DNA from: Escherichia phage pEC-M719-6WT.2
Strand: one strand, 5' to 3'
DNA length: 64,000 bases
Sequence record: OQ845958.1
In this document: positions 5,515-8,015 of the stretch, in pieces
How the letters are laid out: every line of letters begins with the position of its first letter
Numbering within the stretch: the stretch's first letter is position 1
Made by a program: the position numbers and the translations under genes
Notes under the pieces: model-generated
The model's input: the letters and a program-made list of their open reading frames with translations, nothing else
Databases searched by the model: none
What the model was told of the DNA's origin: nothing

Positions 5515-5967
5515 ATGATTATCAATACAAACTCATGGCACGCTCGTTTCCACGACCGTTTTTATGACCGTCATTCTCGTCCACACTCTTTGTGTGCTTA
5601 TTTCTGGAAAATGGTTTGGGCTTGTTTTGTTTGTGCCGTTTTTATCGGTAGTATGGTTTTTGGATTAACTGTCGCGGGTGCAGGTGTATTAGAGCATTTC
5701 TTTGTATTAAGCACCCCGGTCGGTTTAGGCTTAGGGTTTATTTTAGGACTAGCTACACTGGCTCTTATTCTGACGGTAGCATTTGGTCTAATGTATGGTC
5801 TAATGAATTTATGGGCCTGGTACGATTTACGTAAAGAAGAAAAAGAATGGGAACGCATTAAAGCTAAACGTGAAGGAAAGGAAATTAAAGAAAATGTTTT
5901 CATTCAATATATCAAAGCTCGTAAATCTAAGATGTGCCCAGTAATCCACTTCGAGGACAAAGAATGA
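5515..5967 (+). CDS. integral membrane protein
   Basis: 150 aa; two to three hydrophobic helices, basic C-terminal tail. Confidence 0.5.
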   Translation: MIINTNSWHARFHDRFYDRHSRPHSLCAYFWKMVWACFVCAVFIGSMVFGLTVAGAGVLEHFFVLSTPVGLGLGFILGLATLALILTVAFGLMYGLMNLWAWYDLRKEEKEWERIKAKREGKEIKENVFIQYIKARKSKMCPVIHFEDKE

Positions 5968-6974
5968 AAACTATTATGAAAGGCTACTTCGGTAGCCACC
6001 TTTATGGAACAAGCACCCCAGAATCTGATGTTGATTTTAAAGAAATCTTTGTTCCTCATCCGCGAGATATCCTGCTCGGAACCGCGATGAATCATACAAA
6101 CCTGAACACGAATAACACGGCTACCAAAAACACAAAAGACGATATCGATCATGAATTATTCAGTCTGAAATATTTCTTTAAACTGGCTGCCGAAGGCGAA
6201 ACCGTTGCCCTGGATATGATTCACACCCCGGCTGACCTGGTAGTCAAATCCGATTTACCAGATGTATGGAAGTTTATTCAAGACAACCGTTCGCGGTTCT
6301 ATACAACTAACATGAAAGCCTATTTGGGGTACGTCCGTAAGCAAGCTTCCAAATATGGTGTTAAAGGTTCTCGATTGGCTGCACTGCGTGGTGTACTGAC
6401 AATTGTTAACCAGATTCCTGAACAGTGTGTCGATTATCAAGAAGATGGTTCTATTAAACAACGTCGAACTAAAGTAGAAGATATTAAGCACCGGCTCCCT
6501 GAAAACGAGTTCTGTGAATGGGTATTTCATAACCATGAGAAAACAGGTCCTCAAACGTTCTATACTGTTCTTGGACGTAAGTACCAAACCACCCTGTCTT
6601 TAATCGAGCTCAAGCAATCTCTGAATAAACTTGATGCCGAATATGGTGAACGTGCTCGTAAGGCTGAAGCCAATGAAGGTATTGACTGGAAAGCATTGAG
6701 TCATGCTTACCGAGCTGGATATCAGCTGAAGGAAATCTATCAAACTGGTGACCTGGTTTATCCACTTAAAAATGCTTCTATTATTAAAGCAATAAAAGCT
6801 GGTGATATGCCTTTCAAAGTAGTTCAAGGCCTGTTGGAAAATACTGTTGATGAAGTTGAAGTCCTGGCCATCCAGGCTGCTAAGAATGGTATGCCTGCGA
6901 AGGTGGACATGAAGTTCTGGGACAAGTTTGTTGAGGAGGTATATCTTGACAACCACAATTCCTATTATCGATAA
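5964..6974 (+). CDS. Pol-beta-superfamily nucleotidyltransferase-like protein
   Basis: 337 aa from ATG at 5964; N-terminal GS-x10-DVD pattern (GSHLYGTSTPESDVDF) characteristic of minimal nucleotidyltransferase fold; ATGA overlap with upstream gene. Confidence 0.5.
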   Translation: MKTIMKGYFGSHLYGTSTPESDVDFKEIFVPHPRDILLGTAMNHTNLNTNNTATKNTKDDIDHELFSLKYFFKLAAEGETVALDMIHTPADLVVKSDLPDVWKFIQDNRSRFYTTNMKAYLGYVRKQASKYGVKGSRLAALRGVLTIVNQIPEQCVDYQEDGSIKQRRTKVEDIKHRLPENEFCEWVFHNHEKTGPQTFYTVLGRKYQTTLSLIELKQSLNKLDAEYGERARKAEANEGIDWKALSHAYRAGYQLKEIYQTGDLVYPLKNASIIKAIKAGDMPFKVVQGLLENTVDEVEVLAIQAAKNGMPAKVDMKFWDKFVEEVYLDNHNSYYR

Positions 6975-7170
6975 CCAGGAAATCAAGGTCTTCTTATCGT
7001 ATGGAAGACCTAATAAAGGTCGGCGCTGGTATCTCGAAGCAGTCTGTCGGGAAACTGGCAGACGAATCAACAATAAGTACATATGCAAACCAACTCCCAA
7101 ACAAACTCGCAGGTTTGTTAACTGGGCTATCAATACTATAAGATTCCATAATTTTTGGAGTGCAATCTAA
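6946..7170 (+). CDS. hypothetical basic protein (possible TTG start)
   Basis: track ORF 6928-7170; TTG at 6946 lies 6 nt after a GAGGAGG SD; ends just before bidirectional terminator. Confidence 0.25.
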   Translation: MTTTIPIIDNQEIKVFLSYGRPNKGRRWYLEAVCRETGRRINNKYICKPTPKQTRRFVNWAINTIRFHNFWSAI

Positions 7171-7190
7171 GGGCCATCTGGCCCTTTTTT
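7171..7190. terminator. terminator hairpin between convergent genes
   Basis: GGGCCATCTGGCCC hairpin plus T6; lies between stop of + gene (7170) and stop of - gene (7193). Confidence 0.55.
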
Positions 7191-7192
7191 GT

Positions 7193-7939
7193 TTATGAAG
7201 TCACTGTTTGTTCGGCTACTAACAATGCAGAGGTTATTGTAAAGTTGCCGCCATTTGGCATAACAGTTATCGCTGTACCATTGGTTGCCATTGCCCCATC
7301 TTTATCAATGCTAAAGAACGTTGTAAAAGACAAAATATCTGTAGCATTTTCCGGACGATTTTGTATATAAGTGTTTCCGTTGGTTCCAACGAAATTTAAT
7401 GTTATACTTCGAGCTTGCGAGCTTCCTGTAAAATTACCAATAAGGTTGAGTTTAAATAATAGGCTTCTGTCTTGGTTATATGGCCACAACTTATCATCAG
7501 TGGTTCTAAAAAACGGAGATAGAGTCCCTGCTGTCGGCGGAATCCCCTTTAAAACACTAATTATGTTTGACGTCACACCATTAGTTAATAGAACGTTTAT
7601 ACCACTCCAAAACACCTCGGATTTTTCCCTCTTTCCTGCTGTATCAGTTAAAAAATCATCAACAGTTCCTGTATTTCCCAAGTCAAGCCATATCTGATAA
7701 GAAGACTTTCCATCCCCGCCTGGGTCTCCTTTTGGTCCTGGTACACCCGGTTCTCCTTTGGGACCAGGCGGACCCGGTATCTGAGTTTCCGAGCTGGACA
7801 TAGTTTGGAAAAAACGCTCTTTGCTATCTGTAGGAGTATTCGGCAACACCATAGTAGAACCAAACAAATACCAATTATTAGCCAAGGCAGCCTGGACTTT
7901 TTCATTGAGTTCATCAACAGTTCTTCCGGATAAAATCAT
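7193..7939 (-). CDS. collagen-like repeat protein with tail-fibre-like motif
   Basis: 248 aa on minus strand; strong SD (AAGGAGA) 7 nt before ATG; eight Gly-X-Y triplets (GPPGPKGEPGVPGPKGDPGGDG) followed by KSSYQIWLDLGNTGT, resembling the SAYEIW..GF.GT motif of phage fibre proteins. Confidence 0.6.
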   Translation of the reverse strand: MILSGRTVDELNEKVQAALANNWYLFGSTMVLPNTPTDSKERFFQTMSSSETQIPGPPGPKGEPGVPGPKGDPGGDGKSSYQIWLDLGNTGTVDDFLTDTAGKREKSEVFWSGINVLLTNGVTSNIISVLKGIPPTAGTLSPFFRTTDDKLWPYNQDRSLLFKLNLIGNFTGSSQARSITLNFVGTNGNTYIQNRPENATDILSFTTFFSIDKDGAMATNGTAITVMPNGGNFTITSALLVAEQTVTS

Positions 7940-7985
7940 AAACTTTCTCCTTTATGGTTTTATTAAGTATTTTTATTTAGTATAT

Positions 7986-8015
7986 GTGTACAACCAGATG
8001 GTCATGATGCATAAT
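7986..8015 (+). promoter_or_regulatory. early promoter (GTGTACA, 17 nt, CATAAT)
   Basis: followed by conserved leader GATTCCATACTGAGTTACCAAAT...GGAGAATAAAATG. Confidence 0.5.

Follow-up and report, generated by a model that had tools for sequence, protein, structure and literature searches.

Amid the early genes of Escherichia phage pEC-M719-6WT.2 (sequence record OQ845958.1), which are read from the plus strand, lies a gene that is read from the minus strand, and this gene and the protein that it encodes are the subject of the present analysis. The stretch of DNA that we analyzed (the window) is 64,000 nucleotides (nt) long and belongs to a Gaprivervirus-type T4-like phage (Straboviridae). 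The protein belongs to the Phage_tail_NK domain family, and we tentatively read it as an accessory fiber of the virion, made up of an N-terminal anchor, a short collagen-like stalk, a neck, and a C-terminal knob. The features of the locus are as follows, with protein positions given in amino acids (aa).

7193..7939, minus strand: coding sequence, 248 aa, 26.6 kDa, pI 4.8, stop codon included
7790..7939, minus strand: N-terminal alpha/beta domain, aa 1-50, probably a divergent DUF1737-like domain, proposed to dock on the virion (capsid)
7703..7774, minus strand: collagen-like stalk, aa 56-79, eight triplets, about 7 nm if triple-helical
7634..7702, minus strand: neck, aa 80-102, SYQIWLDLGNTGTVDDFLTDTAG, two short helices (80-86 and 93-101) in the AlphaFold2 (AF2) model
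7196..7633, minus strand: Sf6-type knob, aa 103-248, a TNF/C1q-like jelly-roll head by Pfam, PHROG, PDB, and Foldseek
7946..7952, minus strand: Shine-Dalgarno sequence AAGGAGA, 6 nt before the ATG
7968..7975, minus strand: TAAAAATA, which agrees with the T4 late promoter TATAAATA at 7 of 8 positions and lies 28 nt ahead of the ATG
7169..7186, both strands: GC-rich hairpin AAGGGCCATCTGGCCCTT between convergent genes, with a T-run on the plus strand only
about 7195-7985, minus strand: accessory cassette (late-type promoter, Shine-Dalgarno sequence, and coding sequence), present in some Gapriverviruses and absent from others

The reading frame is intact from its ATG to its TAA, and no second convincing minus-strand open reading frame (ORF) of at least 110 aa was found in a scan of the whole window. 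The gene and its flanks are 95 to 99% identical to those of ECML-359, vB_EcoM_RZ, vB_YenM_P8, TH40/TH54, DK-13, and EAWsc9, in whose records it is labeled hypothetical, "tail-NK domain-containing protein," or "tail needle knob." The frame is unbroken in all 10 matching records (9 phages), and the protein is 97.6 to 98.8% identical across the 8 closest (7 phages, e.g., vB_EcoM_RZ gp126). The ratio of nonsynonymous to synonymous substitution rates (dN/dS) is 0.13 to 0.24 against orthologues and 0.20 to 0.24 against close copies, indicating a protein-coding gene under purifying selection. These findings bear out an earlier note on this DNA, which had proposed a real minus-strand gene inside the plus-strand early block and had pointed to its Shine-Dalgarno sequence, found just upstream of the start codon.

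The strongest assignment concerns the C-terminal domain, for which the same note had suggested a test for a C1q/TNF-like fold, and this domain is indeed a TNF/C1q-like knob of the Sf6 type. The Pfam family PF16532 (Phage_tail_NK) matches aa 99-244 with 111.4 bits against a cut-off of 27 (E 4.7e-32), PHROG 1030 matches the knob with E 4e-67, and the solved knobs of Sf6 gp9 (3RWN) and HS1 (4K6B) are matched in the PDB with E 2e-31 (2.1e-31 for 3RWN). An AF2 model built on 52 homologues has a predicted local distance difference test (pLDDT) score above 90 across the knob, and in Foldseek the knob model aligns to 3RWN with E 5e-17, a template modeling (TM) score on the target of 0.89 to 0.90, a root-mean-square deviation of 2.2 to 2.5 Å, and 38% identity, followed in rank by C1q-like heads, the exosporium protein ExsFA, PRD1 P5, and ligands of the TNF family. 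The presence of Sf6-knob homologues in T4-like phages, RB43 among them, was listed by Leavitt et al. in 2013 with their function given as unknown (PMC3741392). In other proteins the knob is attached to many different N-terminal anchors; in Vi01-like myophages, mass spectrometry has found a protein with a knob domain in purified virions (PMC10892097), and its N terminus differs from that of the window protein.

The label "tail needle knob" describes a domain and not a function. We considered and rejected a tail needle of the P22/Sf6 type (gp26/gp9) as a description of the whole protein: neither a gp26-type N-terminal tail-plug domain, nor a coiled coil, nor a needle-type Pfam match was found in it by Pfam scan and AF2, the phage is a myovirus and not a P22-like podovirus, and the gene is placed between nrdC.11 and the nrdC.9 block and not beside tail-hub genes. 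The lack of the plug and of the long coiled coil, in a myovirus, is what leads us to conclude that this is not a P22-type needle.

Between the N-terminal domain and the knob, glycine stands at positions 56, 59, 62, 65, 68, 71, 74, and 77, giving eight unbroken Gly-X-Y triplets (GPP GPK GEP GVP GPK GDP GGD GKS) that run directly into SSYQIWLDLGNTGT. Proline fills 7 of the 16 X and Y positions, and charged residues are also abundant. Both the eight triplets and the fiber-type motif KSSYQIWLDLGNTGT after them are present as the earlier note had claimed. Judged by its sequence, the collagen-like character of this segment is unmistakable, as eight in-register glycines are far beyond chance and the segment is kept in orthologues with variable length. 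The Pfam Collagen model (PF01391) scores it at 17.9 bits, below the gathering cut-off of 27.2, because the run is short; relatives with longer stalks match the model better (best E-value among the aligned relatives, 1.9e-16). The AF2 model is of a monomer only, and its pLDDT falls below 50 at aa 53-75. The number of triplets is 0 in RB43, Miller, EkoM5VN, and the siphophage Carvaje, 8 in the window protein and RZ, 9 in AnYang and C6, 10 in PEi20, 15 in fHe-Yen9-01, and 22 in the metagenomic relative P0008, and a range of this kind suggests that the stalk behaves as a spacer.

The neck likewise belongs to a widespread module, as its pattern SxYxxWLxxGNxGTxxxFL alternates 5 to 13 times with collagen runs in many fiber-like proteins of 500 to 1,100 aa and occurs three times in the relatives P0017 and P0133. 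This collagen/neck module is also found in very diverse bacterial genomes, where a scan for homologues returned the module only and no full-length relatives. One relative weakly matches the Pfam "collagen-flanked surface repeat," which the window protein itself does not. P0133 had been a candidate for sharing the window protein's N-terminal domain and was rejected on inspection, since its N terminus differs.

Together with the late-promoter signal, the N-terminal domain is the most informative feature of the locus, and both had been overlooked in the earlier note. Residues 1-50 are kept in all full-length orthologues, and the Pfam family DUF1737 (PF08410) gives matches at aa 2-50, all in register, for the window protein and for 6 of 8 scanned relatives, with E values of 1.8e-4 to 0.15. 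A profile of nine such N-terminal domains aligned by hhalign with the N terminus of phi24B gp84 (vb_24B_21, a protein with DUF1737 and an esterase) at a probability of 88.7% (E 2.5e-6, 42 columns, 17% identity). The AF2 model of aa 1-50 is beta-alpha-beta-beta (strand 2-5, helix 8-20, strands 24-32 and 42-48) with a pLDDT of about 80, and a Foldseek search of viral models (BFVD) returned two orthologues and then at least six proteins named DUF1737, with TM scores of 0.64 to 0.85 and E values of 0.01 to 0.23. Searches of the PDB with the N-terminal domain, by sequence profile and by Foldseek, gave nothing significant, and PHROG and NCBIfam searches with this domain or the whole protein were uninformative. 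When its profile was run against an index of 5.8 billion proteins for other cargoes, only copies of the same gene truncated by nonsense or frameshift mutations were found.

What gives the resemblance its meaning is a recent preprint on bioRxiv (April 2026) in which cryo-electron microscopy and proteomics of phi24B identified the DUF1737 of gp84 as a capsid-decoration domain, consisting of one helix and three antiparallel strands, that forms a hexamer plugged into the pore of the central hexons and held there by a Tyr42 "tooth," with the remainder of gp84 as cargo (10.64898/2026.04.10.717836). The model of aa 1-50 is composed of the same secondary-structure elements. Given this likeness and the capsid binding of the phi24B domain, aa 1-50 are probably a divergent DUF1737-like particle anchor, a reading that draws on sequence profiles and a structural model. 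No literature that connects DUF1737 to the knob or to T4-like phages was found, so that the link made here appears to be new, the knob homologues themselves having been on record in T4-like phages since 2013.

The second informative feature concerns the time at which the gene is expressed. A perfect TATAAATA lies 22 to 25 nt upstream of the gene in four of the seven genomes examined, namely AnYang and C6 (Dhakavirus), fHe-Yen9-01 (Tegunavirus), and PEi20 (Kanagawavirus), and CATAAATA lies at 22 nt in three Pseudotevenvirus genomes (RB43, Miller, and EkoM5VN). Perfect copies therefore occur in three genera and 7/8 matches in two more, that of the window included, while by chance a position at that distance would carry a perfect match in 0.07% of cases and a match of 7/8 or better in 1.7%. 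Judging the late promoter from the window alone was tried and dropped, because 8-mers resembling TATAAATA are not enriched there, and for this reason the argument rests on the conserved position across orthologues. In all of the T4-like carriers, a hairpin follows the gene, which stands alone on the late strand within an early block; in the Carvaje-like siphophages, the gene belongs to the packaging and head region, upstream of the portal gene, and its ATG overlaps the large terminase gene at that gene's stop codon. The conserved motif and the lone late-strand position lead us to infer that the gene is probably expressed late in the window phage. The window has four perfect copies of TATAAATA (at 2891, 38656, 40832, and 52755), all on the plus strand and none on the minus strand; these may be late promoters for early-strand genes (e.g., near rI) or chance occurrences, and their count equals the expectation.

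The surroundings of the gene agree with the position between rI and nrdC given in the earlier note, as nrdC.11 (5934-6974; a nucleotidyltransferase) flanks it on one side and a small ORF with homologues of nrdC.9, nrdC.8, and nrdC.6 on the other. The terminator that the gene was said to share with the convergent operon holds up in part. The hairpin exists and begins 7 nt past the stop codon of the gene, and on the plus strand it is directly followed by TTTTGTTTAT, whereas on the minus strand only TTAGATT follows. With the T-run confined to the plus strand, the hairpin should terminate the nrdC.11 operon well, and for the knob gene it would be a weak terminator or a mere 3' hairpin.

Comparison with relatives shows that the gene is optional. 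In VR20 and UPEC07, which lack it, the terminator is followed by an AT-rich spacer of about 20 nt and then by TGTACAACCAGATGG (window 7986 onward), and these junctions place the bounds of the cassette at about 7195-7985. A sigma-70-like promoter (TGTACA-17-CATAAT, window 7987-8015, plus strand) abuts the cassette and is kept in the relatives without it, where it comes about 20 nt after the terminator hairpin of nrdC.11, so that the cassette was inserted, or deleted, between a terminator on one side and an early promoter on the other. In VR7 (L014, about 1500-1800) the slot holds an unrelated plus-strand ORF of 98 aa with a signal-peptide-like N terminus (MKLKLKVAIGLLAAVMSFGVLA...), and this different cargo at the same site suggests that the nrdC.11/nrdC.9 junction is a hot spot of cassette exchange. 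Beside the cassette we noted a basic ORF of 80 aa (window 6928-7170, plus strand) that overlaps the end of nrdC.11 and is annotated in VR7 and UPEC07; it is absent in VR20, in which the terminator comes directly after nrdC.11, and thus represents a second small indel at this place.

The suspicion that the gene had been horizontally acquired found no support where a recent event is concerned. Its GC content of 0.408 (window, 0.396) and its GC content at third codon positions of 0.325 are ordinary, for which reason recent horizontal acquisition was rejected, and across six T4-like genera, at 46 to 98% identity, the gene lies antisense at the same place near nrdC.11. This shared position points to an old, sporadically kept resident and not to a recent import. 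The accessory nature that had been proposed for it is confirmed by its presence in some Gapriverviruses and clean absence from others, and both conservation in related phages and a folded C-terminal domain, on which the earlier note had staked its reading, were found.

The gene is also modular. In C6 (L017 1501-2256) the knob is 94% identical to that of the window protein, while the N-terminal domain is only 74% identical and, like the stalk, is of the AnYang type; MN04 is likewise a mosaic, and together they indicate recombination at the neck. In metagenomic Carvaje-like contigs (L008/L009 8001-8705) a TGG-to-TAG change has turned codon 95 (Trp95) into an amber codon in at least 24 contigs, leaving a fragment of 94 aa with anchor and neck, and the allele is either a knock-out in circulation or dependent on a suppressor. 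Within the T4-like phages, the gene is thus old, optional, and modular.

Taken together, these results lead us to favor, with less than even confidence, the reading that the protein is a dispensable, trimeric accessory fiber of the virion, expressed late and docked by its DUF1737-like domains most likely on the capsid, with a knob of the adhesin type. Dispensability is suggested by the absence of the gene from sister phages and by the amber codon in one siphophage lineage, and the modularity of the protein (a stalk of 0 to 22 triplets, the knob swap in C6, and varied anchors) is typical of virion fibers. Everything past the domain assignments, including trimerization and triple-helix formation, late transcription in the window phage, incorporation into the virion, the site of attachment on the capsid, and the function as an adhesin, is put forward here as a proposal. 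According to this proposal, the N-terminal domains would attach to the completed particle, most likely to the exterior of the capsid as in phi24B gp84; the eight-triplet triple helix would serve as a short spacer and be joined to the knob by the two-helix neck; and the knob would trimerize and nucleate the triple helix of the stalk, as is suggested by analogy with Sf6 gp9, C1q, BclA, and PRD1 P5. Such a fiber, roughly 15 nm long and made late in infection, might present the ligand-binding surface of its knob away from the particle and thus act as an adhesin for cells or surroundings. The "accessory fibre or decoration protein" of the earlier note stands as the best reading.

Several observations weigh against this reading. 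The promoter of the window phage is only a 7/8 match, in a window that is not enriched for such 8-mers, and the DUF1737 match is below threshold (13.8 bits in the window protein and 21.8 in the best relative, with a cut-off of 24). The anchor-loop tyrosine corresponding to the tooth is present in the orthologues of RB43, P0015, P0017, and fHe-Yen9-01 and absent from the window protein, whose loop reads PNTPTDSK. The capsid role of DUF1737 comes from one preprint on one phage, its hexameric ring does not match a trimeric fiber in symmetry (6-fold versus 3-fold), and searches of the literature on carrier phages (fHe-Yen9-01, RB43, GuL6, and Carvaje) returned no virion proteomics, electron microscopy, or transcript data on the protein.

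The most direct difficulty is that the proposed site may be taken. The hexon centers of T4-type capsids normally hold Hoc, and hoc is intact in the closest sequenced relatives (282 aa in RZ and 273 aa in PEi20), so that the hexon-pore site would be contested. As the carriers also encode Hoc, the knob protein would add to it and not replace it. An anticorrelation between Hoc and the knob gene was considered and rejected, since RZ and PEi20 have an intact hoc, the Hoc-like protein of Miller has 167 aa (L020 6537-7040), and RB43 has only fragments of 61 and 47 aa (L019 31353-31856). As observations in their own right, Hoc appears to be broken in RB43 and short in Pseudotevenvirus, and the knob protein of the same clade has no collagen stalk, and the clades with a Hoc of 270 to 280 aa have 8 to 15 triplets; only two clades are involved, and this may be a coincidence.

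The occupied hexon centers speak for the first of the alternatives, in which the protein would be an accessory fiber or secondary receptor-binding protein associated with the tail, baseplate, or neck, its N-terminal domain docking on the tail and its knob contacting the cell at adsorption. We regard this as unlikely while still taking it seriously, for the only setting in which the knob has been characterized is the tip of the tail organelle, where that of Sf6 and HS1 gp9 influences DNA delivery (PMC3741392). The PHROG neighbors of the collagen/neck module are annotated as tail fibers, and the swapping of knobs is typical of receptor-binding tips. This alternative also lies nearer to what "tail needle knob," as used in the databases, suggests. 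On the other hand, the gp26-type plug and the coiled coil are missing here, and T4-like tails are not known to have a needle socket. The domain that the N terminus resembles has the capsid as its only known location, and the position of the gene, beside terminase and portal and not tail genes in the Carvaje-like phages and far from every tail and fiber module in the T4-like ones, likewise speaks against the tail.

It may also be, though we consider this quite unlikely, that the protein is a late protein outside the virion, namely, a soluble, trimeric, lectin-like factor freed at lysis that coats debris, outer-membrane vesicles, or neighboring cells and that could serve as a decoy or as an anti-adsorption or superinfection-related factor. 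DUF1737 fusions can act off the particle, as gp84 of phi24B is mostly shed from the capsid by proteolysis (10.64898/2026.04.10.717836), and the gene is dispensable and lies in a hyperplastic region rich in host-interaction genes, adjoining rI in fHe-Yen9-01; the literature searches, moreover, returned no proteomic evidence of the protein in virions. The build of anchor, stalk, and head and the late-promoter motif fit a virion fiber instead, and a related knob protein is present in the virions of Vi01-like phages. Release would depend on lysis, since the protein has neither a signal peptide nor a hydrophobic N terminus, which also removes the ground from the "secreted adhesin-like factor" of the earlier note. 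A decaying cassette that is poorly expressed or silent in the window lineage is the least probable explanation, for although the window and all other Gaprivervirus copies carry the degenerate TAAAAATA in place of TATAAATA, the minus-strand terminator is weak, and the gene has been lost in sister phages, the unbroken frames and the dN/dS against close copies given above, the strong Shine-Dalgarno sequence, and the preserved TAAATA-like core argue for a gene in use.

If the virion fiber docked on the capsid is nevertheless what the gene encodes, a wider and rather doubtful possibility opens up, in which several T4-like genera and unrelated siphophages would share an optional head-fiber system beyond Hoc, consisting of DUF1737-plugged, collagen-stalked knobs that are swappable and whose stalk is tuned to the particle. 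DUF1737 would then be a general, portable capsid plug for cargoes, an esterase in Shiga toxin (Stx) phages and lectin-like knobs here, and hundreds of myovirus genes annotated as "tail needle knob" would carry a label that is wrong as to location. A head-anchored adhesin would represent a second modular capsid-display system in the best-studied phage family and would bear on how phages stick to mucus, cell surfaces, and debris. It would also correct a widespread automatic label that suggests a needle of the P22 type for myoviruses lacking one, and a 50-aa capsid plug joined to a trimeric head would be useful for phage-display engineering. Should the protein be just another minor accessory fiber, the finding would be ordinary. 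The natural, isogenic-like pairs of phages with the cassette (ECML-359 or RZ) and without it (VR20 or UPEC07) make the function directly testable.

Among known systems, T4 Hoc is similar to the fiber in its proposed role, being a dispensable, late-expressed, adhesin-like projection that, like the fiber, is proposed to extend from the capsid surface; it differs in being a string of immunoglobulin-like domains, a monomer at the hexon center, that is unrelated to the knob protein in sequence and fold. The knob of Sf6 gp9 and HS1 is a true relative of the window protein, with 145 homologous C-terminal residues forming the same TNF-like jelly roll at the end of a fibrous protein, while the rest of the protein is unrelated and the window phage, a T4-like myovirus, has a puncturing device of the gp5 type. 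Like phi24B gp84, the window protein begins with a small domain of about 50 aa, predicted here to be built of a helix and antiparallel strands, that is followed by a linker and a cargo; this cargo is an esterase in gp84 and the collagen stalk with its knob here, and gp84 binds as a hexamer, whereas the window protein is expected to be a trimer on a T4-type capsid that carries Hoc. Finally, PRD1 P5, C1q, BclA/ExsFA, and the adenovirus fiber follow the same design of an N-terminal anchor, a shaft that is short and collagen-like or fibrous, and, at the C terminus, a trimeric head of the TNF/C1q-like kind, a likeness that is one of architecture only, as their identity of 8 to 16% amounts to no detectable sequence homology and their anchors and particles are unlike those proposed for the knob protein.

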